DNA of 24,000 bases from NCBI GenBank assembly GCA_963753955.1, contig CAVWEM010000024.1, forward strand, positions 68,810 through 92,809, given 5' to 3'. The notes under the pieces were generated by a model that ran no database searches, had not been told where the DNA came from, and saw only the letters and a list, made by a program, of their open reading frames with translations. The position numbers were made by a program, and so were the translations under genes. Positions within the stretch are counted from its first letter, which is position 1, and each line of letters begins with the position of its first letter. The DNA is from an uncultured Gammaproteobacteria bacterium (GTDB taxonomy: Bacteria; Pseudomonadota; Gammaproteobacteria; Methylococcales; Methylococcaceae). Shown piece by piece: positions 1 to 24,000 of the stretch.

Positions 1-99
1 AGAAATAAAGCTAACCAGCTAATGCAATTATGGCATTTTCCTCCTCTTTTGGTTACTAAGTCTTTCTATAAAATTACAACATCTAGAATGTAATTAAAC

Positions 100-852
100 A
101 TGAATAAAGAACAAGGAATAGAGACAGAGTATTTATCTGAATTAAGGAAAATCTATGACAATATACACCAAAAATTCTCCAAAAATGGCATAGATATTGA
201 CTTGTTTTATTCAAACCCAAGTTATTGTGGCAAAAATCAACAGGGGCAATCTTACCTTTTAGCAGGGACTCATCCAACTGTGATCCATTGGCCGATTCAA
301 GATTATCCTGGCGGCGATAATTTTACTAACAACTTAGTGGAGGCGAGCAAGGAACTCGATAATATCATCGGCAGTGATAACATAGCTTGGGTATCCCCTT
401 CAAACTGGCATTGCACTGCTTTTAGCCCTATCCATAGCTCGGCACTTGATGCTGTCGAATACATTCCGCCAGAGGCACCCTTGCTTGTAACAGAAGCACT
501 TAAAATAACTAAAACTTATGATCTAAAGTTCACTCGAATTGCCATTAGCCGAGATGGAGGGATACTAGCACTTGGCTATCCACAAAGTTCAGATCTCTTA
601 GATGTCAGGTATCGTTTAAAGGAAGCTATTCCAAACGGTAATATTCCAAAGCTGGTTCATATTACATTGGGATATATAACCAAAAATCTGGATTGCATAA
701 CCCATAAAAACACCAATCATTATCTGGATCGCTTCGTTAATGACATTATTACTATTGGAGCTATCCAGATTAATTTTCTAACTTATGGCAATTATACGGG
801 ACCAATCACAACCATGAGCATTACAGAGATATTCAGATATCCTATTAAATAA
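100..852 (+). CDS. 2H-phosphoesterase-like protein (LigT / cyclic phosphodiesterase superfamily); function uncertain
   Basis: 250-aa ORF. Two H-x-T-x tetrapeptides in hydrophobic context ('WHCTAF' and 'LVHITLGY') lie about 85 residues apart, the hallmark of the 2H superfamily. No clear SD before ATG100, so the start is uncertain. Confidence 0.45.
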   Translation: MNKEQGIETEYLSELRKIYDNIHQKFSKNGIDIDLFYSNPSYCGKNQQGQSYLLAGTHPTVIHWPIQDYPGGDNFTNNLVEASKELDNIIGSDNIAWVSPSNWHCTAFSPIHSSALDAVEYIPPEAPLLVTEALKITKTYDLKFTRIAISRDGGILALGYPQSSDLLDVRYRLKEAIPNGNIPKLVHITLGYITKNLDCITHKNTNHYLDRFVNDIITIGAIQINFLTYGNYTGPITTMSITEIFRYPIK

Positions 853-888
853 AAATGTCAACTGATAAAAACACAGAGATACCATAAA

Positions 889-2025
889 GTGCCTCATACA
901 ACTGATCAAAAAATCACAGCAGATATTGCGCTGTGCTACAAAGTGATTCATCCGCCAATTGATACTTTTGATATTAAAGATAATTCACTCGCGTCTGTCG
1001 TTGGAGAATCACCTATTTTGATTGCGATAGATGAATGTGTTGCAGCACTTTATACTACAAAAATCACACAGTATGCCAATAGTTTTGGTTTAATTTTACT
1101 AGGTATTGTTGAACTTGGCGGTATGGAATCCGATAAAAATTGGAATTCTGTAGAGTCAGTGATTCAGGTTGCGATGGATTATGACTTGCCGCGAAACGGG
1201 ACTATAATAGGAATAGGTGGTGGTGTGGTTTTGGATGTAGCTGGCTTTGCTGCATCTATATATAGAAGAGGTATTAACTATATTCGTATACCTACATCAT
1301 TGATTGGCATCGTTGATGTCGGGGTTGGAATTAAACATGGAATAAATCACGCGGGCAAAAAAAATATCATAGGTTCATTTTATCCGCCTTTGGCTAATAT
1401 TAATGACATTAGACTCATTGCCACACAGCCACATGCGGCTATCATTAGTGGAATGGCTGAAATCATAAAACTTGGCATGGTATTTGATGTTAGTATTTTA
1501 GAAAAACTAGAACAGTATGGATCGAAACTAGCTCAATCAAGATTTCAAGAACCAATAGTGGTCGCACAAAGCGTCGTATTGCAATCTGAGCAGATTATGA
1601 TTAATGAATTGAGAAACGACCTTTTTGAATCAGATCTGCGCCGCGCTGTAAATTTTGGGCATACATTTAGTCCAGTACTTGAATCAATTAGCGGATTTCG
1701 AATCCCCCACGGGGAAGCGGTTGCGACAGACATGTTGCTTTCCACTGCAATTGCGGTACTAATTGGTACATGCCCTGCTTCAGATCTTACACGCTTGTCT
1801 ATGCTTTATAAACACATTGAAATGCCCTTACATCTTGATCTATGTACTGTCCAATCCCTTTCAAAGGCTATAGAAGAAGCTCGTTCTCACCGTGCAGGCG
1901 CACTTAACATGGTAGTGCCAAATCCAATTGGACAATCTTCATTTATAGACTCTGTGAGTGAGCAAACTTTGAACGATGCCTTAAAGCTTTCGCGTTATGC
2001 AATAGCTGAAGCTGTAATAAAATAG
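889..2025 (+). CDS. Sugar-phosphate cyclase of the 3-dehydroquinate-synthase superfamily (possibly sedoheptulose-7-P cyclase-like rather than AroB)
   Basis: 378-aa ORF with a GTG start directly after an in-frame TAA. NAD-binding 'GIGGGVVLDVAGFAAS' and 'RIPTSLIGIVDVGVGIKHGIN' are present. Metal-ligand contexts are 'AEIIKLGM', 'NFGHTFSPVLE' and 'HGEAVATDM'. The AroB box 'VDSSVGGKT' is replaced by 'VDVGVGIK'. Confidence 0.85.
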   Translation: MPHTTDQKITADIALCYKVIHPPIDTFDIKDNSLASVVGESPILIAIDECVAALYTTKITQYANSFGLILLGIVELGGMESDKNWNSVESVIQVAMDYDLPRNGTIIGIGGGVVLDVAGFAASIYRRGINYIRIPTSLIGIVDVGVGIKHGINHAGKKNIIGSFYPPLANINDIRLIATQPHAAIISGMAEIIKLGMVFDVSILEKLEQYGSKLAQSRFQEPIVVAQSVVLQSEQIMINELRNDLFESDLRRAVNFGHTFSPVLESISGFRIPHGEAVATDMLLSTAIAVLIGTCPASDLTRLSMLYKHIEMPLHLDLCTVQSLSKAIEEARSHRAGALNMVVPNPIGQSSFIDSVSEQTLNDALKLSRYAIAEAVIK

Positions 2026-2035
2026 GGGATACTCA

Positions 2036-3046
2036 ATGAATGCTTTCGTTTTTGACTTAGGCGGAACATTTATTCGTTGTGGAGTCTTATCTTCCTTTAA
2101 AGGAGTTCTGCATCAACGAAAATCCAAGATATCCGATATATTTAACTCACAAAATACGGAACTGGTCTGGCGAGATATTGAAGGATATTTCTGTGAGTAT
2201 ATAAACCACCACTCACAAGTACTTTCTCTAAACGCACCAATAGTTATAGCTTTTCCTGGCCCTGTTGTAAATCAAAAGAAATTGCTTCAGGCTCCAACGA
2301 TAAACAAAAACAGCGAACCTGTCCCAAACTTAGCAAACCGCTTGCAACACAGAACAGGACGCAATGTTTACTTTATTAACGATTTATCGGCTGCCGCATG
2401 GTATTTCAGTAGACAAACTACATTTCGCCGATTTATGGTTGTAACGATAAGCAGCGGCATTGGCAGCAAAATTTTTGATCGCGACAATGCTATTGGTGTT
2501 TTGGACAATGTACCCTATGCGGGTGAAATTGGTCACCTTACTGTAGATCACTCAATAAACGCACCAAAGTGTGATTGTGGCAAACTTGGGCATCTAGGTG
2601 CCATAGCCTCTGGCCGAGGAATAGAAAGAGCTGCTAGACAATTAGCTATTGATAATCCTACAGCATTTTCTTATTCGCTTTGTGTCCAGCAATTCTCAGC
2701 CTCAGCAAAAACCTTAAATAATGAAGACCACATTTTGCCTTCGGCGCTTCTAGGAGACAATTGGAGTCTGGACATAGTTCGTCGCTCTACTGCTCCCTTG
2801 GCGCAAACTATAGCAACAATTTTCTTAGCATCCGGATTAGAGAAAATTATTATTATTGGTGGTTTTGCGACAAATCTTGGAAGTATTTATCTAAATATCA
2901 TTCGTGAAGAATTTCTCAAATTTATGAATTATGAAGTACTGCCTAACGCACTATCAGAAATGATTGTTTTAGGAGAACTTACCGAAGATGCCTGTCTTCT
3001 TGGAGCCGCTACTTTTGCAGAAATATCGTCTATTATAACTCCATGA
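2036..3046 (+). CDS. ROK-family sugar/cyclitol kinase
   Basis: 336 aa, with SD AGGGGA 6 nt upstream. Contains the N-terminal 'FDLGGTFIRCG' (DxGGT ATPase motif) and the ROK region 'ISSGIGSKIF...YAGEIGH'. The Zn motif is 'GHLTVD...CDCGKLGHLG', with His where the usual CxCGxxGC has its last Cys. Confidence 0.85.
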   Translation: MNAFVFDLGGTFIRCGVLSSFKGVLHQRKSKISDIFNSQNTELVWRDIEGYFCEYINHHSQVLSLNAPIVIAFPGPVVNQKKLLQAPTINKNSEPVPNLANRLQHRTGRNVYFINDLSAAAWYFSRQTTFRRFMVVTISSGIGSKIFDRDNAIGVLDNVPYAGEIGHLTVDHSINAPKCDCGKLGHLGAIASGRGIERAARQLAIDNPTAFSYSLCVQQFSASAKTLNNEDHILPSALLGDNWSLDIVRRSTAPLAQTIATIFLASGLEKIIIIGGFATNLGSIYLNIIREEFLKFMNYEVLPNALSEMIVLGELTEDACLLGAATFAEISSIITP

Positions 3047-4311
3047 AAGTCGCAATTTTAGGAGGCAGCGCACCTAGCACACCTAGCTTATTTAATTTTT
3101 TTTCTAAACAGCCGAAGCTTCCTAAGCTTGAGATTTCGCTTGTCGGTCGGTCAACGCAACGCTTGCAAGCCGTAGTTCGTGCCTCACGTATTTTAGCAGC
3201 GGGAAGTGGTATTAGTATTGACGGATATCCAGCAACTCCCAGCGGACTTGCCTGCGCATTGGAGGGTGCTACCCTCGTGCTAATTCAGGTACGTGTAGGC
3301 GGATATTCTGGAAGAACATTCGATGAAAACATGCCCTTAAAATACGGGATCTGTGGAGATCAAGATTTAGGGCCAGGCGCTTTATCTTCAGGACTCCGTG
3401 TATGGCCTGAAATTCTGATATTATTAGAGCAAATTTACATTCATGCCCCCAATGCCTATATCGGAATGCTCTCATCTCCTGTTAGCTTATTAGTAGGAGC
3501 CGCCAATCTATCGTTTCCTCAATTAAATACATTTGGAATATGTGAGCTTCCATGGCGAAAATTACTCCAACTAGCAAACAGTTTATCACTCAACACAGAC
3601 GAATTAAAAGTTGGGTATTATGGCATCAATCATTTTGGGTGGTTTTATAAATTCCAATTCCATGGCTGTGATATATTTAGTGATATAAGAAAAAATCCAG
3701 GTAACTACAAAAACCTTACAGGAATAGACGAATTTATGCGCTTTGGGGGATTTCCAACACCATATGTTTATCTGCATATCAAACAACATGAATTCCTTTT
3801 GCAACAGCTCGGTCGTGAAGTAAGCCGGGGCGAAGAACTTGAGCAAATTTGCGAACGGGTGTTCCCCTGTTTTCAAGATGGAGATATCAGCGTTATTCGA
3901 GATGCACTTACTCTACGACCTGCGCCCTGGTATGAGTTCGCTATTGGCCCTCTAATTTTGGAACTCGCAGACTGTAAGCTCACAACACAGTTTTTCTTGT
4001 CTGTTGTTGAAAACACAGGAATGAACTCTAATTCAATTCCAGAAATTTCAGAAACTCCTCATATCATTATTTCTGGGAAACTCATACGCAACAATCTTAA
4101 CGTCACTGTTCCTGATGAGATCAAACAGATGGTAGATCGCATAAAATTGTTTGAAATAGCCGCAATATCTGCAATGATTCACCAGAATACCAAACTGCTT
4201 ACCGAAGCATTGATGCTTCATCCATGGGTATCTAATTTAGATGCAGCATCTTCTATGTCGTCAGAAATACTTCAGTACAATAGACGCACCAATTCTATAT
4301 CAAAACGTTGA
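3043..4311 (+). CDS. Glycoside-hydrolase family 4-like NAD(+)/Mn-dependent enzyme
   Basis: 422 aa; ATGA overlap with the ROK kinase stop. By eye it aligns to GH4 6-phospho-glycosidases. Matching segments are N-terminal 'MKVAILGGSAPSTPSL', 'QVRVGG...MPLKYGICGDQDLGPGALSSGLRVWPEIL', 'GICELP' (Cys ligand) and 'YGINHFGWF' (His ligand). Confidence 0.8.
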   Translation: MKVAILGGSAPSTPSLFNFFSKQPKLPKLEISLVGRSTQRLQAVVRASRILAAGSGISIDGYPATPSGLACALEGATLVLIQVRVGGYSGRTFDENMPLKYGICGDQDLGPGALSSGLRVWPEILILLEQIYIHAPNAYIGMLSSPVSLLVGAANLSFPQLNTFGICELPWRKLLQLANSLSLNTDELKVGYYGINHFGWFYKFQFHGCDIFSDIRKNPGNYKNLTGIDEFMRFGGFPTPYVYLHIKQHEFLLQQLGREVSRGEELEQICERVFPCFQDGDISVIRDALTLRPAPWYEFAIGPLILELADCKLTTQFFLSVVENTGMNSNSIPEISETPHIIISGKLIRNNLNVTVPDEIKQMVDRIKLFEIAAISAMIHQNTKLLTEALMLHPWVSNLDAASSMSSEILQYNRRTNSISKR

Positions 4312-4359
4312 TGTGCATTTGATAACAAATGCAAACCTTATCTAGCAACGGGAGGTGAG

Positions 4360-5202
4360 ATGAAAGCTAACATAAATGATCTTCATATTTCTCAGTATAA
4401 TAACCAAGGATATTTGGTTATTCCAGATGTTTTTTCTCAATCCGAAATCATGGAAATGCGCTCTGAATCAGATAGACTATTGGAGTTAATGGTAAATTCA
4501 TCCCTTGCCAATCAACGTACTAGCGAACGTCTAGACTTGCGTGTTCTACCATCAGGCAATCAAGTAATCCGAAAAATACAACCAATCAATGATCTTTCAC
4601 TTTATTTTACTAAAGTATCACAGGATAATCGTGTTATCTCAACCATTAGGGAGCTTATTTCAGACGACCCAGAACTAATTGAGGAGAAATTGAGTTACAA
4701 ACAACATTTACCAGTTCCGATTGATGGAATTCATGCTTTAAATGCAGAAGATCGATTTTTTGCTCATTGCGACTGGGCATATCATAAAGAACAAGGCTAT
4801 CCACCAAAAACAATTAATGTTGGTATTTGGCTTGACGATAGCCCTCCAATGTCTGGCCCTCTTCAGGTATGGCCGGAATCACACAAAAAGATATTACATC
4901 ACGACAAGATTGGAAAAAGCTATATTGTGCCTGAAGAACTTCTTCAAGATTACAATCCAGTTGAGCTTATCCCCGAAGCAGGTGCGGTAATTTATTTTCA
5001 TGGTCTACTGGTGCATTCCTCAAAACCTAATTCAACCCGACTACCAAGAAGGATTATGTTCTTCAATTATGTGGCGAAAAGTGAGTCAGTTGGATTTGAT
5101 GTTAGAAATGGGCCAAGACGATACAATGAATCGCCTTATGAATGGAACTACCAGATAATGAAAGATAAAGGTACTTTCATTGACAAATTCAAAATCACTT
5201 AA
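4360..5202 (+). CDS. Phytanoyl-CoA dioxygenase (PhyH) family Fe(II)/2-oxoglutarate oxygenase
   Basis: 280 aa, with strong SD GGGAGGTGA before the ATG. N-terminal 'YNNQGYLVIPDVFSQSEI' is typical of PhyH. The HxD facial triad sits in 'FAHCDWAYH' and the distal His in 'FHGLLVHSSKPN'. Confidence 0.8.
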   Translation: MKANINDLHISQYNNQGYLVIPDVFSQSEIMEMRSESDRLLELMVNSSLANQRTSERLDLRVLPSGNQVIRKIQPINDLSLYFTKVSQDNRVISTIRELISDDPELIEEKLSYKQHLPVPIDGIHALNAEDRFFAHCDWAYHKEQGYPPKTINVGIWLDDSPPMSGPLQVWPESHKKILHHDKIGKSYIVPEELLQDYNPVELIPEAGAVIYFHGLLVHSSKPNSTRLPRRIMFFNYVAKSESVGFDVRNGPRRYNESPYEWNYQIMKDKGTFIDKFKIT

Positions 5203-5366
5203 TATTAACCTGTACCATCAAATGCTGTTATAAGAAAATTGCTTCATTCAACATAACCACACTTTAATTGTTTCGATGATTATGACTTTCTCGTGGCAGC
5301 TACAGCGATGTTGTACTTTGTGAAGTCCTTTGCGCCCACCGTCAGTAAGCCCTTGTAAAGAAAAGA

Positions 5367-5405
5367 CCTACGAACATCCTCTGGAGGATGCTCGTAGGTT
5401 TGCTT
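5367..5405. terminator. Putative bidirectional intrinsic terminator between convergent genes
   Basis: Hairpin CCTACGAACATCCT-CTGG-AGGATGCTCGTAGG (5367-5398; 14 base-pair positions including one mismatch, 4-nt loop). It is followed by TTTGCTT on + and by a T-rich run (TCTTTTCTTT) on -. It lies between the PhyH stop and the helicase stop. Confidence 0.5.
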
Positions 5406-5411
5406 AAACGC

Positions 5412-7943: not shown

Positions 7944-8011
7944 TGCCTGCTCCTCGTCAACTGGGATTAAGGGGCAGGCCAACCCCCAAGGGCGTTCTGC
8001 CCCAGGGGGTT
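7944..8011 (-). repeat. Intercistronic hairpin + RBS module, copy 1 of 3
   Basis: The - strand reads ACCCCCTGGGGCAGAACGCCCTTGGGGGTTGGCCTGCCCC-TTAATCCCAGTTGAC-GAGGAGCAGGCA-ATG. The stem is GGGGCAG/CTGCCCC with an inner CC[CTTG]GG tip. Confidence 0.7.
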
Positions 8012-8040
8012 TTTGAATAGTGCCGTGTCGGCCTTTGGCC

Positions 8041-8154
8041 TTAACGGTTAAGTAAATCGCCGATCATGGCGGTGGTGATCCAGGTCAATGGATCGTCGGC
8101 ATCGACAACCCGCGTGAAATAGCGGTCGCCAAGCTTGGCATGTTGCCGGGTGTA
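8041..8154 (-). pseudogene. 3' remnant of the hypothetical gene split by IS630 copy 1
   Basis: Joining 9320->9319 (TA) to 8152 downward continues the 9309..9647 frame. It then reads ...EFLDGNY-TRQHAKLGDRYFTRVVDADDPLTWITTAMIGDLLNR* with stop at 8041-8043. Confidence 0.75.
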
Positions 8155-8158
8155 TACT

Positions 8159-8719
8159 TTAGTGCTTTACAAACTGAACTTTATTAAAGGTTTGAAATTT
8201 GAGGTTAAGCAGAGTTTTAAGCATAGGCTCATATTCGTCTGTTCCCACTTTTGAAAGGCAATCCTGTATGGCTTCGGTGAAGAAGCCAAAACTCTCATAG
8301 TATTTAGAATACAGGCATTCTTTCTTGACGAACTTCCATAATCGTTCAATCAGATTTAAATTGGGCGAGTAGGCCGGTAAAAAAAGCAATTCGATACCAA
8401 GACTATCCGCCAACTCTTTTACCACCTTGGCATGTTGATATCTTGCATTGTCCAGCACCAAGGTGACTGGAACCTGAAACCCAATCTCGGCAATCGCCCT
8501 GAGCAATTCGCAGACGCTCTCCGCATTGATGTAGGTGTTATTTGTCACCGTAATGAGTTGATGCGTCCGTGCGTTGATTGCGCCTAATACATTAAATCTT
8601 TTTCGTCCCGCAGGGGCAGAAACAAAAAGCCGGTTCCAAAACCATAAATATCCAAGGAATGCCGCCCAGACAAAGTGCGCCGCATCCACGAAAAAAACTT
8701 CCCTGCGACCCGCCATCAT
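8159..8719 (-). CDS. IS630 transposase, DDE catalytic part (orfB)
   Basis: 186 aa with 'FFVDAAHF' (D), 'LVLDNARYQHA' (D) and 'LPAYSPNLNLIERLW' (E), the IS630 DDE pattern. Confidence 0.9.
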   Translation of the reverse strand: MMAGRREVFFVDAAHFVWAAFLGYLWFWNRLFVSAPAGRKRFNVLGAINARTHQLITVTNNTYINAESVCELLRAIAEIGFQVPVTLVLDNARYQHAKVVKELADSLGIELLFLPAYSPNLNLIERLWKFVKKECLYSKYYESFGFFTEAIQDCLSKVGTDEYEPMLKTLLNLKFQTFNKVQFVKH

Positions 8720-8822
8720 CTCTTCTAAGCGTTGCTCAAGCTTTTGTTCTTTAAAGATTTCTTGTTTTTTTGGCGTTCCGGGTCAGTTTGTTGGACGGGA
8801 ATTGAGCCTGTTTTATACCGGC

Positions 8823-9221
8823 TCAATCCAACGTTTTTTTTAAGAATCTATAAACAGCGGTGTTGCTTCGCTTGATCCCCGTGGTTTCCTCAATGCGGTG
8901 TCGAGCCTCACTAATGGTAGCAGGCGGTTTTTCAGCAATCGCTTCTTCAATTTTGTCGCGATGCAATGCTAGAACACTTTCTGGCTTGTGAAAATTAAGC
9001 TTCCGAATCCGATCCAATCCACCCTCTTGGTATTCGCGAAGATAACGGGCCAATGTGGCTCGCCCTCGAATATTGCTCAATTGACAGATTTGATGATGGG
9101 GCATTCCCAGAGATTTGTAGTACAAGACCTCCATTTTTTGACGGACACGCGGATGAGGATGGTATCGCTTTTCATACAGCAACTGCTCAACGGTTTCCGG
9201 AGAAAATTCTAGGCGAATCAT
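8823..9221 (-). CDS. IS630 transposase, N-terminal HTH part (orfA)
   Basis: 132-aa helix-turn-helix-type N-terminal region. It ends in a T8/A8 tract (8834-8841). Confidence 0.85.
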   Translation of the reverse strand: MIRLEFSPETVEQLLYEKRYHPHPRVRQKMEVLYYKSLGMPHHQICQLSNIRGRATLARYLREYQEGGLDRIRKLNFHKPESVLALHRDKIEEAIAEKPPATISEARHRIEETTGIKRSNTAVYRFLKKTLD

Positions 9222-9308
9222 ATCTTACTGAACTTGGGGATGTGTTTTTGGGCGTAGGTGTGGTTCAAAGCATTATACAGGAATTCGTAAAATGTTTTAT
9301 TTATTAGT

Positions 9309-9647
9309 TTAACAAGTATAATTTCCGTCCAAGAACTCGGAACACATGAACCGCTCCACACCGTCTGCCACCTCCCAATTCAGCGGAGGCAACATTTCAA
9401 GATGTTCGGTCCAGTACTCCAGGTTGGTTTCCTCGGGATCACGCAGGTAAAACCGGCGCTGGCATTCCAGGAACGCCGCCCAAGTGATGACCTCGTAATC
9501 ATCCGGCCCGCCGCTGTGATCGGCGGGGATTTTGGCCCGCCCGGCCTCGGCATACTCCGGGCTTTTGTAGAGATTCCAGGCTGAAGGACTTTCATCCTGA
9601 GCCTTGCTCGCCAGCACAAAACACGCTGGTTGTTCTTGGGTTGTCAT
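9309..9647 (-). pseudogene. Hypothetical protein, 3' end replaced by IS630 copy 1
   Basis: 112-aa ORF whose last 2 residues and stop come from IS sequence. ATG 9647 is preceded by GAGGAGCAGACC. The reconstructed pre-insertion protein is about 146 aa. Confidence 0.7.
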
Positions 9648-9709
9648 GGTCTGCTCCTCAAAATGTGGAAAGGGGCAGACATCCCCACGGGGCGCTGCCC
9701 CTTGGGGTA
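9648..9709 (-). repeat. Intercistronic hairpin + RBS module, copy 2 of 3
   Basis: The - strand reads ACCCCAAGGGGCAGCGCCCCGTGGGGATGTCTGCCCC-TTTCCACATTTT-GAGGAGCAGACC-ATG. The hairpin begins 14 nt after the upstream stop codon. Confidence 0.7.
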
Positions 9710-9722
9710 AGTCATGCTTGGC

Positions 9723-10055
9723 TCAGTCGTCGGCAAAGACGACCCACAGGCCGTCCATGAATCCGTTGGCCCGGCCTGACGGCAGTTTCAGCCGCACGGT
9801 CGGGCCTCGGATGTCGCCGTCGAAGCGGGCTTCGATGCCGACATTGAGTTCATGCAACAGCCTTTGGATTTCCATCTCGACGCCCTCCACCGCCAATTCT
9901 TCCCCATATTCCATGGCAAGTTCGCGGTGCCGGGACGATAGAGCCTTAAGCCTTTCGGCAACCAATCTGGCCAACAGGGGCGGAACCCCTTCATCAGCCA
10001 AAACAGCGTCCAAGGCATCAGGATTTCTGAAGGTATCGAAAATCGCGCTTAACAT
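9723..10055 (-). CDS. Hypothetical protein (110 aa)
   Basis: ORF with coding-like composition. ATG is preceded by GAGGAGCAGACC. No motif recognised. Confidence 0.6.
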   Translation of the reverse strand: MLSAIFDTFRNPDALDAVLADEGVPPLLARLVAERLKALSSRHRELAMEYGEELAVEGVEMEIQRLLHELNVGIEARFDGDIRGPTVRLKLPSGRANGFMDGLWVVFADD

Positions 10056-10126
10056 GGTCTGCTCCTCGAATTGAATGAACAGGGGCAGACCAACCCAAGG
10101 GCTTGTCTGCCCCTAGGGGTGGTTGG
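10056..10126 (-). repeat. Intercistronic hairpin + RBS module, copy 3 of 3
   Basis: The - strand reads ACCCCTAGGGGCAGACAAGCCCTTGGGTTGGTCTGCCCC-TGTTCATTCAATTC-GAGGAGCAGACC-ATG. The stem is 9 bp (GGGGCAGAC/GTCTGCCCC). Confidence 0.7.
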
Positions 10127-10201
10127 TTAAAAACGCTTATCCGCCAAGGCAAGCCTTGGCCGACATGGGTCAACGGTTATCGAGTGCCGCCAGCGCGAGA
10201 T

Positions 10202-10456: not shown

Positions 10457-10465
10457 GGCCGCTCC

Positions 10466-13691: not shown

Positions 13692-14117
13692 CTAAACGTA
13701 TAACTTGATGCCCACTCGTTGGGCAGCATTAGCCAAGTCGCCATCGAATACCAGGAAGCGGAAATCCAAGCCGGAGACGGCACGCCAAAGCGTTTCCACT
13801 GCCGCTAGATGCACACTGTCGTAACCTCGCAAGCGATGTGCTTCCGCCAAATCGCCCGCCCGGCGCACCAATTCATGAGTGACGCCAACGATCTCAAAAC
13901 TCGGCCAGTCGCGTTCAAAATCGCCGCGCCATGACGGGAGCCTGTCCTCGTATCCGGGCTGTTGCGCCTTGCGGGCAAATGCGGCACGGGTTTCGGCATA
14001 GGCGATTAGATGGGTCGCGCAAACCTTCGCCTCGGCAACCGCCGCCCGAACCCGGTCGGAGCCTGCTTCGTCCGCGTACAGCTTCACCACGGCGGAAGTG
14101 TCCAGGTAAAGGATCAT
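13692..14117 (-). CDS. vapC: PIN-domain toxin VapC
   Basis: 141 aa; N-terminal 'MILYLDTSAVVKLY' (PIN acidic residue context). ATGA overlap with the upstream antitoxin. Confidence 0.85.
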   Translation of the reverse strand: MILYLDTSAVVKLYADEAGSDRVRAAVAEAKVCATHLIAYAETRAAFARKAQQPGYEDRLPSWRGDFERDWPSFEIVGVTHELVRRAGDLAEAHRLRGYDSVHLAAVETLWRAVSGLDFRFLVFDGDLANAAQRVGIKLYV

Positions 14118-15747: not shown

Positions 15748-16010
15748 CTAGCGCCCCAGATAAACCGCCGTGACTTCTTCGCGGTTGTGGCCCATTTCCT
15801 GGCTGATAATGAGCCTGGCGGCAAGGTCGGCTTCCCGCTGTGCGGGCGTCAGTTCCCCGCGCCTTGGGCCTCCAGCATGGGGCGCTTTCCATCCGGTCAA
15901 TTCCAAATACCGATCTTGGGCATAGCCATGCCGTAGCCCGTGGGCTTTCCGGTCGCCTTCGGCGATACCGGCTTTCTTGGTTTCCCGCTCATAGAGATTC
16001 TTCTGGAATA
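15748..16010 (-). pseudogene. Tyrosine recombinase/integrase, C-terminal fragment (split by IS630 copy 2)
   Basis: The - strand translation is FQKNLYERETKKAGIAEGDRKAHGLRHGYAQDRYLELTGW...GHNREEVTAVYLGR*. It contains the HxxR box and the catalytic Tyr context. It joins in frame to 17175..17792 across the IS. Confidence 0.85.
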
Positions 16011-16107
16011 TACTTGTTAAACTAATAAATAAAACATTTTACGAATTCCTGTATAATGCTTTGAACCACACCTACGCCCAAAAACACATCCCCAAGTTCA
16101 GTAAGAT

Positions 16108-16506
16108 ATGATTCGCCTAGAATTTTCTCCGGAAACCGTTGAGCAGTTGCTGTATGAAAAGCGATACCATCCTCATCCGCGTGTCCGTCAAAAAATGGAG
16201 GTCTTGTACTACAAATCTCTGGGAATGCCCCATCATCAAATCTGTCAATTGAGCAATATTCGAGGGCGAGCCACATTGGCCCGTTATCTTCGCGAATACC
16301 AAGAGGGTGGATTGGATCGGATTCGGAAGCTTAATTTTCACAAGCCAGAAAGTGTTCTAGCATTGCATCGCGACAAAATTGAAGAAGCGATTGCTGAAAA
16401 ACCGCCTGCTACCATTAGTGAGGCTCGACACCGCATTGAGGAAACCACGGGGATCAAGCGAAGCAACACCGCTGTTTATAGATTCTTAAAAAAAACGTTG
16501 GATTGA
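16108..16506 (+). CDS. IS630 transposase, N-terminal HTH part (orfA)
   Basis: Translation is identical to 8823..9221. It ends at the A8 tract 16488-16495. Confidence 0.85.
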   Translation: MIRLEFSPETVEQLLYEKRYHPHPRVRQKMEVLYYKSLGMPHHQICQLSNIRGRATLARYLREYQEGGLDRIRKLNFHKPESVLALHRDKIEEAIAEKPPATISEARHRIEETTGIKRSNTAVYRFLKKTLD

Positions 16507-16609
16507 GCCGGTATAAAACAGGCTCAATTCCCGTCCAACAAACTGACCCGGAACGCCAAAAAAACAAGAAATCTTTAAAGAACAAAAGCTTGAGCAACGC
16601 TTAGAAGAG

Positions 16610-17170
16610 ATGATGGCGGGTCGCAGGGAAGTTTTTTTCGTGGATGCGGCGCACTTTGTCTGGGCGGCATTCCTTGGATATTTATGGTTTTGGAACCGGC
16701 TTTTTGTTTCTGCCCCTGCGGGACGAAAAAGATTTAATGTATTAGGCGCAATCAACGCACGGACGCATCAACTCATTACGGTGACAAATAACACCTACAT
16801 CAATGCGGAGAGCGTCTGCGAATTGCTCAGGGCGATTGCCGAGATTGGGTTTCAGGTTCCAGTCACCTTGGTGCTGGACAATGCAAGATATCAACATGCC
16901 AAGGTGGTAAAAGAGTTGGCGGATAGTCTTGGTATCGAATTGCTTTTTTTACCGGCCTACTCGCCCAATTTAAATCTGATTGAACGATTATGGAAGTTCG
17001 TCAAGAAAGAATGCCTGTATTCTAAATACTATGAGAGTTTTGGCTTCTTCACCGAAGCCATACAGGATTGCCTTTCAAAAGTGGGAACAGACGAATATGA
17101 GCCTATGCTTAAAACTCTGATTAACCTCAAATTTCAAACCTTTAATAAAGTTCAGTTTGTAAAGCACTAA
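16610..17170 (+). CDS. IS630 transposase, DDE part (orfB)
   Basis: Identical to 8159..8719 except for one residue (LINLKF vs LLNLKF). Confidence 0.9.
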   Translation: MMAGRREVFFVDAAHFVWAAFLGYLWFWNRLFVSAPAGRKRFNVLGAINARTHQLITVTNNTYINAESVCELLRAIAEIGFQVPVTLVLDNARYQHAKVVKELADSLGIELLFLPAYSPNLNLIERLWKFVKKECLYSKYYESFGFFTEAIQDCLSKVGTDEYEPMLKTLINLKFQTFNKVQFVKH

Positions 17171-17174
17171 AGTA

Positions 17175-17792
17175 TACATAAGAACGCCCTGCCGGAATCA
17201 ACGAACCATTTCCCACAAGCTGGCGGACTCGCCCTAGCAATTCGCGCTGGGCTTCATTACGAATAGGTATATCGCGTGGCCTGCCACCTTTCGTCCAAGA
17301 CGGCTTTAAATGGATATGGTTATCACGAACCGCATAAGCCGGTTGGAATTTCATGGCCTCCTCGCGGCGTAATCCGAAGTGTGCCTGCATCTCCAAACTC
17401 AAGCGTAGATGAGCGTCTTTTATTTGCGCCAGTTTCTCCGGGTCTAGGCTGATTTGTTTTCCTTCTGGTTTAACATAAACCCGGTTTTCAATGCCCAGCT
17501 TCCCATTGTCATTGGGGATAAGGGAGGGCCTGCCGATCTTTTCCGCCCACCACCGCAAATGCGACAGGCGGTTCTTCAGGGTTCCCGTGGATAATCCTTC
17601 CGCCTGCCAGCGCTTCACCAAGGCTTCGACATGCTTGGGCTTCAGGGAAATGGCCTTCATGTTTCGATAGCCCATTTCCTTCAATTGGCGGGCCATCAGA
17701 TCCAGCACTTGGTGACGCGCCGCCTGTGTTCCGATGGAATCCTCACGGTGTTGGTTGGTCAGTTTTTTCAATTCCCATTGCAGATCGTCCAT
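17175..17792 (-). pseudogene. Tyrosine recombinase/integrase, N-terminal fragment (206 codons)
   Basis: N-terminal SAM-like domain plus the first catalytic Arg context 'HFGLRREEAMKF'. The native sequence ends at ...LIPAGRSYV; the remaining 10 residues of the track ORF are IS-derived. Confidence 0.85.
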
Positions 17793-19602: not shown

Positions 19603-19818
19603 CTAACCAGCGCAGCAAGGTTTCTGCTGTTGAATTGGTGGACACTTGACCGAGCCGTAGGAGCAGAACACGCAGCAATCCCCCTGCTTTGGTTTGAGTA
19701 ATGTTCCGCAGCCTTTGCAATCATAGAAAAATTGGCAGGCATCGGTCGGCATGGTTTCGGTTTCAGCATGTCCGCAGTGGGGGCAGGTAATTATCGACTC
19801 CAAAATCGCCCCATTCAT
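19603..19818 (-). CDS. GDCCVxC-domain small Cys-rich protein (mer-associated)
   Basis: 71 aa with 'CPHCGH', 'CKGCG' and 'GDCCVFCSYGSVKCPP'. It overlaps the merP stop by 4 nt. Confidence 0.75.
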   Translation of the reverse strand: MNGAILESIITCPHCGHAETETMPTDACQFFYDCKGCGTLLKPKQGDCCVFCSYGSVKCPPIQQQKPCCAG

Positions 19819-20105
19819 TTTCCCTCCCCTTTGACAAGGGATGGATAACCGGCGGCTTTGGTTGCTTCGGTCAATTTTTCCGCCGTGGCTGTGGCATCGT
19901 CGAATTCCACGGTGGCTGTTTTGCTTGCGTAATCAACAGAAACCTTTTGCACCCCGGAAACGCCCTCAAGGGCTTTTTTGACGGTAAGCGGGCAAACCGT
20001 GCAAGTCATGTTTTGCACGTCAAGCGTGACTCTGCGAGACGCGGCCAGAGCGGCGCCGGAGGTAACTGCAAACGCCAGAAAGAGCGGAAGAATTCGAGTT
20101 TTCAT
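19815..20105 (-). CDS. merP: Periplasmic mercury-binding protein MerP
   Basis: 96 aa; signal peptide followed by an HMA fold with 'MTCTVCPLTVKKAL'. Confidence 0.9.
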   Translation of the reverse strand: MKTRILPLFLAFAVTSGAALAASRRVTLDVQNMTCTVCPLTVKKALEGVSGVQKVSVDYASKTATVEFDDATATAEKLTEATKAAGYPSLVKGEGK

Positions 20106-20114
20106 GTGGTTTTC

Positions 20115-20453
20115 TCAATAGAGCAGCGGAGCGACCCACGGGAACGCCACCAATCCGAACAAGGGGATTGCCACCACCCAAAAAATAACACGCTGATTGC
20201 GGATGGTTTCATCATCGGCGCACAGCCTGCCGGGTTCGCATGTCTGGGGTGTTATGTAGAGCTTGCGAAACGCCAGCCCGACAAAAAGCAGCGTGAGCAG
20301 GAGAAAGGCCGGGCGCAATGGCTCAAACGCGGTGAAATTCGCCACCCATGCGCCACCAAGGCCCAGGCTCAACAGCACCAAGGGCGCGACGCAACACAGG
20401 CTTGCGCCGATCCCGGCAAGAACTCCCGCAATCATGGCTTGTTTATGGTTCAT
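20115..20453 (-). CDS. merT: Mercuric ion transport protein MerT
   Basis: 112 aa. The first TM carries the 'CC' pair ('GASLCCVAPLVLL') and there is a second Cys pair ('CEPGRLC'). By eye it aligns with Tn501 MerT along its length. Confidence 0.9.
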   Translation of the reverse strand: MNHKQAMIAGVLAGIGASLCCVAPLVLLSLGLGGAWVANFTAFEPLRPAFLLLTLLFVGLAFRKLYITPQTCEPGRLCADDETIRNQRVIFWVVAIPLFGLVAFPWVAPLLY

Positions 20454-20481
20454 GGTAGCCCCGTGTGTTTTCGTTCAGCTT

Positions 20482-20513
20482 ACTATAAGCTCCGTACCTA
20501 GGTACGGAGGCAA
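20482..20513. promoter_or_regulatory. mer operator/promoter (MerR dyad within divergent promoter)
   Basis: Perfect 20-bp palindrome CTCCGTACCTAGGTACGGAG (20490-20509) containing the classic TCCGTAC-N4-GTACGGA. On the - strand, TTGCCT (20513-20508) and TATAGT (20487-20482) flank it with an over-long 19-20 bp spacer, as in MerR-type promoters. Confidence 0.8.
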
Positions 20514-20518
20514 GCCCC

Positions 20519-20927
20519 ATGACACAAGAAAGCTTCACAATTGGCACTTTGGCGAAAATGGCCGGGGTGAACGTCGAAACCATCCGTTTTTATCAGCGGC
20601 GTGGCCTGCTGGCCGAACCCGATAGGCCGCTTAAGGGTGTCCGGCGCTTATACCGAACGTGACTCGCAGCGTGTGCGCTTCATCAAGCAGGGGCAGAAGC
20701 TGGGTTTTTCATTGGATGAACTCATGGATTTGTTGAGCCTTGAGGATGGGCAACACTGCCAAGAGGCTCAGGACATCGCCCTTAAAAAGCTTTCCTCGAT
20801 CCGGGAACGGATCGAGGGCTTGCGCACCATGGAAAATGCCTTGTCCGCGTTGGCCGAAAGCTGTTCCCAAAACACTGGATCGGTATCTTGCCCGATCATT
20901 CTTGCCCTATTGGAAGCCTCGCCATAA
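20519..20927 (+). pseudogene. merR: MerR transcriptional regulator, frame-shifted
   Basis: The frame from ATG 20519 gives [43 protein letters not shown], then stops at 20660-62. The +1 frame continues [25 protein letters not shown]...VSCPIILALL. Deleting one T of TT 20648-49 restores ...RRYTERDSQ.... Confidence 0.8.
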
Positions 20928-21024
20928 GCCAAATTTCTGTTCCAGGGTTCAAGATATTTCTCAAACAGAAATGGAGGCATTCAAGCTGGGTAGAATTACA
21001 AAATGCCACTCCACCCAAGGGCCG

Positions 21025-22215
21025 TCACTCCTCCTTTCCCTGTTTGCACAAGGCTCCATGGAGGCAATGCGGACAATAAAATACCTCTTGGCCTGCCTGG
21101 CGGGCGTGGAAAAGCAGGCTATCGTCTTCTGAGTTTCCACACACAACACAAGCGGCAGACGTGAAGTATTTGCGCCTGAAATACAAAGCCACGTTAACCA
21201 AGCCAATCAAAACCGGCACTTCCACCAACGGCCCGATGACGGCGGCGAAGGCTTCGCCGGATTGCAGCCCAAACACCGCCACGGCGACGGCGATGGCGAG
21301 TTCAAAGTTATTGCTGGCGGCGGTGAAGGACAGCGTGGCGCTGATGCGATACCCCGCCCCGGCCTTGGCCGACATCCAGAAGGTGATTAAAAACATCACG
21401 AGGAAATAAATCACCAAAGGCACGGCGATGCGCAATACGTCCAAAGGCAGTTGGACGATGTATTCGCCCTTCAGCGAAAACATCACCAAGATCGTGAAAA
21501 GCAGCGCAATCAGGGTGATGGGGCTTATCTTGGGGATGAATTTTTCCTCATACCATTGCCGCCCCTTTTGGCGTACCAGGATAAAACTGGTCAATAGGCC
21601 GCCAAAGAAGGGAATCCCCAGATAAACCAAGACGCTTTCAGTGACTTGCAAAATGGTGATATCGACCTTCAAACCCTCGGCGATGCCCAGCCATTCCGGC
21701 AGCACCGTGACAAACACATAGGCGTAAACGGAAAAGAACAGCATTTGGAAGATGGAGTTGAACGCCACCAGCCCGGCGCAATATTCCGTGTCTCCGTCCG
21801 CCAATTCATTCCACACCAGCACCATCGCGATGCAGCGGGCGAGGCCGATGACAATCAGGCCGACCATGTATTCAGGGTAATCGCGCAGGAACAACACCGC
21901 CAGCCCGAACATCAGCAAGGGTCCAATCAGCCAGTTTTGCACCAAGGATAGCAACAGCACTTTGACATTCTTGAAAACTAAAGGCAGTTCTTCATAACGC
22001 ACTTTCGCCAACGGCGGGTACATCATCAAAATCAGGCCGATGGCGATGGGAACGGAGGTGGTGCCGACTTGGAAATGGTTCAGCCATTGGGTGAACTGGG
22101 GAACCCCATAGCCCAAAGCCACCCCACCACCCATGCTCAAGAATATCCACAAGGTTAGAAACCGCTCCACGAATCCCAGGCGTTTTGGGGCGATGGGGTA
22201 TTGGGATGTGTTCAT
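21025..22215 (-). CDS. acr3: ACR3-family arsenite efflux permease with extra Cys-rich C-terminal tail
   Basis: 396 aa. N-terminal '[24 protein letters not shown]' and multi-TM body are typical of ACR3. After '...[12 protein letters not shown]' about 45 extra residues contain CVVCG...CPHC. Confidence 0.85.
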
Positions 22216-22226
22216 GGTGTGTGCCT

Positions 22227-22718
22227 TTAATGGATTTCCGCGCCGATCTTATTCAAGGCTGCTGCCAATTCAGTTTTATCCATCGTCTCCACCGGCAGGG
22301 CCAGCAACCGATGAATACGCTTTTCGAGAATGGCATAAGTGGCTTCAAACGCAGCTTCGATCTCTTCCGGGCTGCCTTTGACATGGCCGGGGTCGGACAG
22401 GCCCCAATGGCCGCGTGTGGCCTTGCCCAAATAAACCGGACAAGCCTCGCCCGCCGCCGAGTCGCAGACCGAAATCAGGATGTCGATGTTGGCATCCTCG
22501 AACTCGTCCCACGACTGGCTTTGATACCCTTCCGTCGGAAGTCCATGCCGCGCCAAGGTCGCCAAGGCACCGGTGTTGATTCGGCCAATCGGGTGGCTGC
22601 CGGCGCTGAAGGCTTTGAAGCGGCCCTGGCTTAAATGGTTGAACAAGGCTTCGCCCAACACGCTACGGCAGGAGTTGCCGGTGCAGAGGACTAGGATATT
22701 CAAGGGTTTTTGGCTCAT
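22227..22718 (-). CDS. arsC: Arsenate reductase, LMW-PTP (thioredoxin-coupled) type
   Basis: 163 aa; P-loop '[10 protein letters not shown]' and the downstream Cys pair '[11 protein letters not shown]'. Confidence 0.9.
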
Positions 22719-22822
22719 GGATGGGTTCCTTGTGGGGATGGTGACTGATTGAAGTTAAGTTCAGGTGGATGTCGCATCTAGCAATTGAAAAATCGCAGAC
22801 CCAGCCCAACGGGCAAAACGCT

Positions 22823-23608
22823 TCACCCGTGGTGCCAGATCTTCACGGCTGAAATGACCAGTATCCCTGCCAGCAGTGGCAACAGCACGGCACTGGGCAC
22901 GATTCCGAGCAACTGTCCGCCCAGAAAGGCCCCGGTCAGCGAACCGATAGCCATGACCAGCACAAAAGGGCGGTTTTTTCCCAATACGGTGAAGCTCTTG
23001 TCACGGCTGTAACGCGTGAAGCCCGTCACCATGGTGGGCAAGCTGACCGCCAGGGACAAGCTGCCTGCCAACTTGATGTCAGCGCCGAACAGCAAAACCA
23101 AGGTAGGGATCAGCAGTTCACCGCCAGCCACGCCGAGCAACGAGGCGACGACACCAATGCCAAAGCCTGCGGCAACGCCGGACGCCACCTGAAACGCCCC
23201 GGAAAACAGAGGTTGCCCGTGTCCCGACGGGTCATGGCCCAACAGGAGGGCCAGGGCGATCACCAGCAGGAGGATGGCCATGATCCGGTATAGCGTCCCG
23301 GACTTGAGCCGGATCGCCCAGCCCGCCTCTAGCCATGCCCCAAGGAGGCTTCCCGCCAAGAGATTCGCAACCGCCTCCCAATGCAGGACGATGCTGCTGA
23401 AATGCACGGCGCTGACACGGAAAGGCAAAGCGGACGCCACGACCACGAGGCTCATGGCCTTGTTGAGAATGACCGCCTCCAAAGCCGCGAAGCGGAAGAT
23501 GCCAATCAGGAGCGGCAGGCGAAACTCCGCGCCGCCCAGGCCGATCAGTCCGCCCAACGTCCCGATCACCGCACCGCTGCCGAATACGGCCAGCCTATTC
23601 GTTCTCAT
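22823..23608 (-). CDS. TauE/SafE (DUF81) family anion-export-type membrane protein
   Basis: I prefer ATG 23608 (AAGGA upstream) over the track start at 23725. It has a Gly-rich polytopic pattern with two repeats, 'GGLIGLGGAEFRLPLL' and 'LLGVAGGELLIPTLV'. Confidence 0.75.
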   Translation of the reverse strand: MRTNRLAVFGSGAVIGTLGGLIGLGGAEFRLPLLIGIFRFAALEAVILNKAMSLVVVASALPFRVSAVHFSSIVLHWEAVANLLAGSLLGAWLEAGWAIRLKSGTLYRIMAILLLVIALALLLGHDPSGHGQPLFSGAFQVASGVAAGFGIGVVASLLGVAGGELLIPTLVLLFGADIKLAGSLSLAVSLPTMVTGFTRYSRDKSFTVLGKNRPFVLVMAIGSLTGAFLGGQLLGIVPSAVLLPLLAGILVISAVKIWHHG

Positions 23609-23646
23609 GTCCTTATTCTCACTCGCACCTGACGATCCGCGTTGAT

Positions 23647-24000
23647 TCAGGCCGTCAGGCCAGTGATTTGGGCCAGCCCCTTCGCGCCAATAGGCGGTTC
23701 GGCCAGCCAAGGGATCAAGGCGCAACGAGGCGACAATTCCTCGGCCACTTTGCGGATGAACGGGATTTCATACTGGCCCCGTTCGTCCAACTGCGGATCG
23801 TGGGTGCCGCTCGCCAGCAGGCTTTGGTTGATGACCCAGGCGTAAGGCGCGATGCCCGCCCGTGCCAGATCCTGTTGCAGGCGTTCGGCCTCATGGACGG
23901 GCGTGGCCTCGGCCAGCGTGGCGATGATGACCTTCGTGAAGGCCGGGTCGCGCAGGCGCGGCAACAACTGGCGCACGGCTTCCGGCATGTCGCCTTGCAC
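23647..24000 (-). CDS. arsA: Arsenite-transporting ATPase ArsA, C-terminal end (partial, runs off the window)
   Basis: The 117-aa partial ORF has 'VIIATLAEATPVHEAERLQQDLARAGIAPYAWVINQSL', matching the C-terminal half-domain of ArsA. Confidence 0.75.
   Translation of the reverse strand: MQGDMPEAVRQLLPRLRDPAFTKVIIATLAEATPVHEAERLQQDLARAGIAPYAWVINQSLLASGTHDPQLDERGQYEIPFIRKVAEELSPRCALIPWLAEPPIGAKGLAQITGLTA

Follow-up and report, generated by a model that had tools for sequence, protein, structure and literature searches.

The gene clusters known to direct the formation of C7 cyclitols, namely those of validamycin (ValA/ValC), of acarbose (AcbC/AcbM) and of Burkholderia kirkamide/streptol (K and S), have in common a sugar phosphate cyclase of the group comprising EEVS (the synthase of 2-epi-5-epi-valiolone) and DDGS, encoded beside a kinase of the ROK type. 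A locus sharing this pairing is present in the DNA analysed here, a stretch of 24,000 nucleotides from an uncultured gammaproteobacterium of the Methylococcaceae (contig CAVWEM010000024.1, positions 68,810 to 92,809), hereafter referred to as the window. It consists of six genes designated g0 to g5, which encode a protein composed of a metallophosphoesterase, a middle domain and a 2H domain (g0), a stand-alone 2H phosphoesterase (g1), a sugar phosphate cyclase (g2), a ROK-family kinase (g3), an enzyme resembling glycoside hydrolases of family GH4 (g4) and a PhyH-family oxygenase (g5). In contrast to the described clusters it harbours neither an aminotransferase nor a pseudoglycosyltransferase, HAD phosphatase or VOC epimerase but instead the GH4-like and PhyH enzymes as well as two 2H phosphoesterases plus an effector-type protein.

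This effector-type protein recalls the effectors of the CBASS, Pycsar and Thoeris systems (Cap12, PycTIR, nuclease), as the g0 family likewise combines a constant C-terminal module with interchangeable TIR, nuclease-type or membrane N-termini; a mobile location and a patchy distribution are further traits which the cassette shares with these systems. Unlike them, however, it lacks a CD-NTase, a nucleotide cyclase and a TIR partner that makes a signal; where they have a SAVED, CARF, SLOG or cNMP-binding domain, the constant module of g0 is a catalytically intact 2H domain with a middle domain, and the g0 family is partnered by sugar-phosphate enzymes or, in the loci L102 and L103, by a radical SAM enzyme. 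With the DUF1045/TIGR03223 proteins of C-P lyase (phn) operons and with LigT/CPDase, g0 and g1 have the 2H fold with its two HxT motifs in common, whereas the domain of g0 is fused to effector modules and to a novel middle domain and occurs in a non-phosphonate context. Finally, g4 resembles the GH4 6-phospho-beta-glucosidases (5C3M, 1S6Y, BglT 1UP6, GlvA 1U8X) in its fold, NAD-binding N-terminus, Cys/His metal ligands and tyrosine but differs from them in that it has CELP for C[NDH]xP, belongs to a cyclase-linked clade of its own and is predicted to accept a carbocyclic pseudosugar phosphate as substrate. As the best reading of the locus we propose, tentatively and at somewhat short of an even chance, a cyclitol-phosphate pathway coupled to a toxic effector which is gated by its 2H domain, that is, a conflict system under the control of a small molecule and not a cluster of the antibiotic type. 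Such a conflict system would most likely be anti-phage and of the abortive-infection type.

A six-gene block of foreign composition

Within the window the GC content of g1 to g5 amounts to 0.37-0.43 compared with 0.45-0.64 for the remaining sequence, and their GC content at third codon positions (GC3) to 0.28-0.34 compared with 0.69-0.76 in the neighbouring genes. The original prediction, made from the letters of the window, had described a cassette of five plus-strand genes. Their coordinates, the tiny gaps between them (36 nt for g1/g2, 10 nt for g2/g3, 48 nt for g4/g5) and the ATGA overlap of g3 and g4 at 3043-3046 are exactly as claimed, and the proposed Shine-Dalgarno sequences are found upstream of g3 (GGGGA) and of g5 (GGGAGGTGAG). 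The size of the unit, in contrast, requires correction. It had been suspected that the cassette continues to the left of the window, and this is indeed the case since the window opens with the 3' end of g0, which is contained as a whole in L001, a Logan contig which carries the locus in identical form (100% tblastn matches) and reaches further to the left. In L001, g0 and g1 are separated by 77 nt, and a low-GC block from about 4500 to 12400 comprises g0 through g5 with 0.60-0.67 GC on either side. All six genes thus share one foreign base composition with sharp borders, and the cassette, about 7.8 kb in size, is a horizontally acquired, foreign AT-rich block forming a unit of six genes and not of five.

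The right end of this block is marked by a terminator-like hairpin (L001 12324-12357) with 15 pairs, seven of which are GC, and with a T-rich tail on the minus strand. It is situated between g5 and a convergent helicase gene of the adjoining mobile element, at a point where the GC content climbs from about 0.39 to about 0.6. Promoter and terminator scans of the block gave results at chance level, no Rfam element or tRNA was detected in or near the block, and no direct or inverted repeats flanking it were found. Compared with plasmids by megablast, the cassette and the remainder of the window returned short fragments only and hence no close DNA relative. Neither the six-gene block nor the sequence flanking it encodes an aminotransferase, pseudoglycosyltransferase or glycosyltransferase, in agreement with the original prediction, which had also noted that ATP-grasp and O-methyltransferase genes, likewise not present, are missing.

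The 2H phosphoesterase families of g0 and g1

The N-terminal metallophosphoesterase of g0 (Pfam Metallophos, residues 7-250) has kept all motifs of this enzyme class (DxH, GD, GNHD, H and GHxH) and is followed by a conserved middle domain and a C-terminal 2H domain of the DUF1045/TIGR03223 type. Pfam DUF1045 covers residues 609-747, and TIGR03223 aligns over its full model length with residues 541-758 at 60 bits, which is far under the cut-off of 249. The motifs of this 2H domain, H588-x-T590 and H702-x-T704, are invariant in seven aligned family members; in an alignment of 25 members both histidines and the first threonine are invariant and the second threonine is nearly so. Using PADLOC (2023) and NCBIfam (June 2026) as libraries of defence models, we obtained matches of g0 to DS8_antiphage (121 bits) and the DS9_1 anti-phage phosphoesterase (69 bits) of NCBIfam as well as to PDC-S60 (146 bits) and 'Effector/Endonuclease' (105 bits) of PADLOC.

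A search with residues 340-760 of g0 as query yielded 48 family members. Their middle domain is conserved, and at their N-termini they carry a TIR domain of the CAP12/PycTIR type, a TIR/TIR_2, ThsB_TIR or DUF4062 domain, or one to two membrane helices without an enzyme domain; a metallophosphoesterase occupies this place solely in the protein of the present window. The TIR versions retain the catalytic glutamate and match the PADLOC models 'Effector TIR' and PycTIR and the NCBIfam Cap12 models. When the g0 family was compared as a profile with the sequences of the PDB, the TIR part alone was matched, with no match to the middle domain. Judged by sequence, the exchange of TIR, nuclease and membrane modules next to a domain that stays constant appears typical of ligand-gated immune effectors, which denotes a resemblance and not membership in a known class, and we infer that the middle-plus-2H part of g0 may serve as a ligand sensor.

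No Pfam or NCBIfam model matches g1. The original prediction had nevertheless read it as 2H phosphoesterase-like, in accordance with two HxT motifs, WHCTAF (aa 103-108, nt 406-423) with H104-x-T106 and VHITLG (aa 186-191, nt 655-672) with H187-x-T189, which recur family-wide as WH[SC]T and VHITLG. H104 and R170 are invariant within the family and T106 is nearly so. The family is very rare, a set of 1.84 billion proteins containing no more than 30 representatives of it. While AlphaFold did not provide a usable model from the single sequence (pLDDT 33), prediction with the family alignment resulted in a pLDDT of 92.6, and a Foldseek search with this model gave as best matches 1VDX (2'-5' RNA ligase-like), LigT of E. 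coli, Atu0111 (2FSQ) and plant CPDase (E 1.7e-8, target-normalised TM about 0.72). A profile search of g1 against PDB sequences found nothing, BLASTP detected no similarity between g1 and the 2H domain of g0, and neither g1 nor the constant part of g0 has a relative in IMG/VR. By its motifs and its modelled fold, g1 is a 2H phosphoesterase. Domains resembling g1 are also located inside giant, probably eukaryotic proteins of 1950-6640 aa (P0178, P0181, P0187, P0191, P0192). In the three that were scanned (P0178, P0181, P0191) the accompanying domains include HEAT repeats and methyltransferase, NDK, PEP-utilising, CofD, DUF4922 and NUDIX domains, which suggests that they are connected with the chemistry of sugar nucleotides or phosphodiesters.

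To describe the surroundings of the pair we took a census of 14 lineages differing by more than 10% in DNA (L102 to L104 included), nine of which offer enough sequence. A g0-like gene abuts a g1-like gene in all nine, a GH4-like gene is present in seven and a cyclase in six, and in seven lineages a GH4-like enzyme or a cyclase accompanies the pair in several gene orders. Four types of locus can be distinguished. In the first, represented by the window and L104, g0 and g1 occur together with an EEVS-clade cyclase, ROK, GH4 and PhyH. The second (L088-L090) combines them with a DHQS/EVS-like cyclase (DHQS, 3-dehydroquinate synthase), ROK, GH4 and a sugar-phosphate TIM-barrel enzyme, and the third (L086, L091-L096, L101) with a DHQS/EVS-like cyclase, a GmhA-like sedoheptulose-7-phosphate isomerase and GH4. 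In the fourth (L102, L103), g0 and a distant g1-like protein are joined by a radical SAM/SPASM enzyme, with no cyclase or GH4. L104 contains all six families of the window, with identities of 42% for the constant part of g0, 39% for g1, 45% for the cyclase, 45% for ROK, 36% for GH4 and 50% for PhyH; a Zn-dependent alcohol dehydrogenase is added, and the genes form two groups on opposite strands. The radical SAM/SPASM enzymes of the fourth type, 480-490 aa long, are encoded after g0/g1 at 11101-12573 of L102 and 7567-9012 of L103. We considered these genes as viperins and rejected this assignment, as the PADLOC pVip match of 53-63 bits covers the radical-SAM core only and SPASM domains are present; the matches to the viperin model probably reflect generic similarity of the core.

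The cyclase, its conserved partners and the oxygenase

The families which the original prediction had assigned to g2 to g5 all score above the respective Pfam cut-offs. With 241.8 bits at a cut-off of 305, g2 misses the aroB equivalog model TIGR01357. Among PDB entries it is most similar to ValA (4P53, 184.7 bits) and DDGS (5TPR, 174.9 bits), while every DHQS remains at or below 153 bits. It shares 39% identity with the EEVS Cja_3250, 37.5% with the EEVS Staur_1386, 33% with DDGS and 32% with ValA, compared with 29% for E. coli DHQS and 27% for BtrC. Reference sequences were taken from the data accompanying Osborn et al. 2015 (eLife, PMC4426668), and the fingerprint columns were derived from these sequences. 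In a neighbour-joining tree calculated without bootstrap, g2 falls into a large, mostly metagenomic clade which is sister to Staur_1386/Cja_3250 and lies within the EEVS plus DDGS group, apart from DHQS, EVS, aminoDHQS and DOIS. The fingerprint (A. nidulans numbering) points in the same direction: K250 is replaced by Met, G274-H275 by Ser-Pro and GGK by GIK, with N268 alone being kept, and Met as well as Ser-Pro correspond to the EEVS/DDGS state (fingerprint segments LRRAVNFGHTFSP, nt 1636-1674, and VDVGVGIKHGIN, nt 1312-1347). The previously noted VDVGVGIK in place of VDSSVGGK(T) of AroB is present at aa 142-149, where it aligns to VDSSVGGK of E. coli DHQS, and the histidine at the position of ValA H360 is part of SHRAG (aa 333-337). 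At the position of ValA Asp281, g2 possesses an asparagine as do DHQS and EVS, whereas EEVS have Asp and DDGS have Ala. This asparagine is unique to g2, as Asp occupies the column in all 29 sampled clade relatives and in L104. The idea that selection favoured it as a mimic of the DHQS/EVS-like cyclases found in TIR-type loci was dropped, as L104, the closest analogue, keeps Asp.

By sequence comparison, g2 is a sugar phosphate cyclase other than AroB whose nearest relatives are EEVS. Because tree, identities and active-site columns sort it with EEVS/DDGS, its substrate is very probably sedoheptulose 7-phosphate, with the exact product being uncertain. The pairing with a ROK kinase, which had been likened to that of C7-cyclitol pathways, is borne out by this cyclase group and by the Burkholderia clusters. 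As to the extent of the gene, the public NCBI/ENA call of the cyclase comprises 300 aa (79% of the ORF) while the Logan call gives the 378-aa form starting with GTG; the shorter version cuts a conserved N-terminal part for which the alignment with ValA begins at about residue 33, and the GTG start suits the family better. Many homologues of g2 reach lengths of 550-660 aa (P0002, P0017, P0019, P0025, P0026, P0071 and others), some of them being fused to a cupin, and the cyclase gene of L004/L005 is preceded by a cupin gene of its own.

The kinase g3 reaches 99.4 bits with Pfam ROK and stays under every NCBIfam equivalog cut-off, including a weak match to BglK. It contains the ATP motif DLGGT at aa 7-11, the catalytic segment IND at aa 114-116 and the CxCGxxGH zinc motif as CDCGKLGH (aa 179-188) but no DNA-binding domain, its 336 aa leaving no space for a helix-turn-helix. 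Its relatives in the PDB are glucokinases and ManNAc kinases, and orthologues of 40-46% identity are encoded between cyclase and GH4 in L002-L012, L088 and L104.

For g4, Glyco_hydro_4 (61.8 bits) and Glyco_hydro_4C (49.1 bits) are the matching Pfam models. The Cys-x-x-Pro metal site is found as GICELP (nt 3535-3552), followed by GINHFGW (nt 3622-3642), and C167, H197 and Y241 are invariant among 20 relatives. The nearest solved relatives are the 6-phospho-beta-glucosidases 5C3M and 1S6Y (phmmer, about 84-108 bits); the family of g4 is small, with 44 members, and constitutes a clade separate from classical GH4. This separate, cyclase-linked clade argues for a substrate other than (phospho)glycosides and, taken together with the solved relatives, suggests that g4 may act on the phosphorylated product of g3, a carbocycle which would mimic a hexose 6-phosphate. 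A literature search of limited coverage revealed no link between GH4 and cyclitol pathways. The oxygenase g5 (Pfam PhyH, 68.9 bits) is most closely related to ectoine hydroxylases of known structure (E about 2e-9). Its metal-binding triad consists of H136-C-D138 and the distal H219 in VHSSKPN (aa 218-224), with the arginine R230/R231 in PRRIMF, and as judged from these residues it is of the hydroxylase and not of the halogenase type. An orthologue with 50% identity is located 3' of GH4 in L104 and absent from the other related loci.

On the contigs of the best cyclase homologues a ROK and a GH4-like gene follow directly downstream. Scanning one genome per species with an alignment of GH4-like proteins, we found seven true orthologues in metagenome-assembled genomes (MAGs) of Terriglobales, Acidobacteriaceae, Eisenbacteria and Eremiobacterota. 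Within the set L002-L012, which spans three phyla, the order cyclase-ROK-GH4 is conserved in eight of the eleven loci; the remainder comprise a ROK-GH4 pair with the cyclase 6.7 kb off, a truncated ROK-GH4 contig and a solitary GH4. The members of the trio share 31-49% identity with those of the window, and the cyclases as well as the GH4-like proteins each belong to a single clade. Further genes in these loci code for cupin, GFO/IDH/MocA, NUDIX, DegT aminotransferase, GT4, NTP-transferase and epimerase proteins; g0, g1 and PhyH are not found in L002-L012. Cyclase, ROK and GH4 represent a conserved trio of soil bacteria which has apparently not been described before. The co-conservation on which the original prediction hinged is hence given for the trio in these eight loci and for all families including PhyH in L104. 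Beyond this set, pairs of a more distant GH4-like protein (26-30%) and a DHQS-family cyclase (31-33%) lie within about 3 kb of each other in L016, L023 and L059 (MAGs of Gemmatimonadales, Nannocystaceae and Planctomycetaceae), their GH4 proteins being sister to the cyclase-linked clade.

Mobile-element setting and possible biological role

The helicase gene facing g5 encodes a protein of 856 aa which is 60-64% identical to pKLC102-type helicases of plasmids and integrative conjugative elements (ICEs) from Pseudomonas, Stutzerimonas and Ralstonia. Having only weak matches to DrmD, ZorD and BrxH, it presumably belongs to the ICE backbone and lies outside the cassette. Beyond it follow DUF3275-RadC, HerA-like and ICE-type integrase genes, and an integrase also adjoins the copy of the cassette in L092. 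On these sequence grounds the cassette is likely to be cargo on a proteobacterial ICE of the pKLC102/ICEclc type. The coordinates of all features are compiled in Table 1. Both copies of the IS630-family element have their transposase split into an HTH and a DDE_3 reading frame and bracket, in the manner of a composite transposon, 6.7 kb with DUF3275-RadC, the PIN-domain gene and the HerA-like ATPase. The weak PADLOC matches obtained in this region are to mad8, HerA and DndH, and additional genes for defence or toxins may be present on the ICE. In L001 the genes upstream of g0 show host-like GC, and their content appears consistent with the variable region of a mobile element.

Table 1. Positions of the cassette genes and of surrounding features (window coordinates unless marked L001)
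Feature	Position	Strand	Remarks
g0, 3' end (EIKLTS + stop)	1..22	+	whole gene at L001 4698-6980, 760 aa
g1, 2H phosphoesterase, 250 aa	100..852	+	motifs and AlphaFold model
g2, sugar phosphate cyclase, 378 aa, GTG start	889..2025	+	Pfam DHQ_synthase and DHQS_C
g3, ROK-family sugar kinase, 336 aa	2036..3046	+	Pfam ROK
g4, GH4-like NAD+/Mn2+ enzyme, 422 aa	3043..4311	+	Pfam Glyco_hydro_4 and Glyco_hydro_4C
g5, PhyH-family Fe(II)/2-oxoglutarate oxygenase, 280 aa	4360..5202	+	Pfam PhyH
Hairpin, 15-bp stem	5367..5400		stem-loop scan; terminator-like right end of the AT-rich block
SNF2/DEAD helicase, 856 aa	5412..7982	-	convergent with g5
IS630-family element, first copy	8151..9320		1170 nt; inverted relative to and 100% identical with second copy
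PIN-domain protein	13692..14117	-	
HerA/FtsK-like ATPase, 380 aa	14469..15611	-	
IS630-family element, second copy	16009..17178		1170 nt
Metal/oxyanion resistance cargo	19815..23725	-	HMA (MerP-like), MerT, ACR3-type arsenite efflux pump, low-molecular-weight phosphatase (ArsC-like), TauE/SafE exporter
Genes upstream of g0	L001 2040-4431		peptidase M15, PhdYeFM antitoxin, HU-like DNA-binding protein

In view of the conserved 2H pair with its interchangeable nuclease, TIR and membrane modules, a conflict system is no less probable than a cryptic pathway to a natural product. In the latter case the locus would be an ordinary if unusual secondary-metabolite cluster for a C7-cyclitol carbasugar acting as glycosidase inhibitor, osmolyte or signal, and g1 and g0 would be phosphatases or phosphodiesterases in the role which HAD or NUDIX enzymes play elsewhere. 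We regard this, the strongest of the rival readings, as possible but rather doubtful: such pathways are known to begin with an EEVS-clade cyclase and a ROK kinase, relatives of the trio reside beside aminotransferase, GT4, NUDIX, NTP-transferase and epimerase genes, the catalytic motifs are kept in all enzymes and the Zn-dependent alcohol dehydrogenase of L104 is typical of cyclitol tailoring, yet neither the swapped N-termini of g0 (four TIR-type domains, a nuclease-type phosphoesterase, membrane helices) nor the replacement of cyclase and GH4 by radical SAM in L102 and L103 finds an explanation, and the six-gene block contains no exporter, regulator or resistance gene. The original prediction of a cryptic cyclitol pathway holds as far as the non-AroB cyclase and the ROK kinase are concerned but missed the conserved 2H pair with its immune-type modules. 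The phosphoesterase which it had seen in place of the missing biosynthetic genes does exist, yet, because of this pairing with interchangeable effector modules, it is probably not a mere tailoring phosphatase. It seems improbable that the operon serves the salvage or catabolism of a phosphorylated heptose or glycoside, with ROK phosphorylating the import, GH4 cleaving a phospho-glycoside and the other enzymes processing the heptose phosphate. ROK and GH4 do form a classical catabolic pair (beta-glucoside kinase with 6-phospho-beta-glucosidase), to which the closest solved GH4 structures, the weak BglK match and the GmhA-like isomerase of related loci may be added; DHQS-type cyclases, however, are biosynthetic, a transporter, PTS component or sugar regulator is missing from the block, the GH4-like clade is linked to cyclases and separate from classical GH4, and the effector-type domains of g0 would have no place in such an operon.

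Mere chance could have brought g0, as a stand-alone defence nuclease, next to a metabolic operon of five genes, as might be suspected from the resemblance of its N-terminus to the single-gene defence candidates PDC-S60 and DS8 and from the 77-nt gap preceding g1. The invariable adjacency of g0-like and g1-like genes in the nine lineages, the company of GH4-like or cyclase genes in seven of them despite varied orders, and the common foreign composition with sharp borders render this very improbable. That g2 might be the housekeeping 3-dehydroquinate synthase of the host, surrounded by ordinary neighbours, is suggested by aroB being its top NCBIfam match by name and can practically be dismissed in view of the sub-threshold score, the three exchanged residues at K250, G274 and H275, the EEVS branch and a GC3 of 0.28. 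The cyclase thus clusters outside AroB, the genes are syntenic in relatives, and their neighbours are not those of ordinary catabolism. The conflict system which we favour has to face objections as well. No dedicated synthase of a nucleotide signal (CD-NTase, pyrimidine cyclase, ThsB TIR) and no known phage sensor is encoded in the cassette, and a multi-enzyme pathway branching off a central metabolite looks constitutive, which would be unusual for an alarm signal. Elsewhere the trio is found beside glycosyltransferases, aminotransferases, NUDIX proteins and NTP-transferases, hence in a biosynthetic context. Both 2H domains are catalytically intact and may thus be simple phosphodiesterases of the pathway. 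The likeness of g0 to defence proteins is limited to its N-terminal domain of about 300 aa, and no PADLOC or NCBIfam defence model matches g1, the middle/2H part of g0 or g2 to g5. The comparison loci are mostly short soil-metagenome contigs, several of them near-duplicates, and a literature search, limited in coverage, brought up no paper that ties GH4, DUF1045 or cyclitols to TIR domains or to defence.

Starting from the observed families, catalytic motifs, foreign origin, co-conservation and effector-module swapping, we infer for the favoured conflict system a scheme that extends to substrate, order of steps, nature of the ligand, gating and biological role. In this scheme g2 would convert sedoheptulose 7-phosphate to a C7 keto-cyclitol of the 2-epi-5-epi-valiolone type with release of phosphate, and g3 would put a phosphate back on the cyclitol, probably at its primary C7 hydroxyl. 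The phospho-pseudosugar would then undergo an oxidation-assisted elimination or an epimerisation catalysed by g4, the product of which g5 would oxidise further. The 2H domains of g1 and g0 would both bind and cleave a phosphodiester form of the cyclitol, and in g0 this would control the toxic, nuclease-type effector domain. The ligand may possibly be a cyclic phosphate, an idea prompted by analogy, as canonical DUF1045 adjoins phnN (ribose-phosphate chemistry) and 2H enzymes generally act on vicinal cyclic phosphates. Taken further, the loci could stand for a new class of immune or conflict systems with a non-nucleotide messenger, a C7 cyclitol phosphate or cyclic phosphate formed from sedoheptulose 7-phosphate via cyclase, kinase or isomerase and the GH4-like enzyme, which 2H domains read and turn over while gating TIR, nuclease or membrane effectors, and with a sister branch producing its ligand by means of radical SAM; we consider this conceivable but on the whole unlikely.

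If the coupling is real, it would be the first link of cyclitol (pseudosugar) chemistry to immune-type effectors and would add a non-nucleotide small molecule to the alarm and control signals of bacteria. The cassette being self-contained, mobile and about 7.8 kb long, its direct cloning and testing is feasible. Even on a conservative view, cyclase, ROK and GH4 constitute a widespread, unstudied module of soil bacteria, and two rare families of 2H phosphoesterases gain a concrete, testable substrate context. The module furthermore hints at a new NAD+/Mn2+-dependent reaction of the GH4 type on carbasugar phosphates, which could be a dehydration or an epimerisation, steps that in the known C7-cyclitol pathways are accomplished by other enzyme families.

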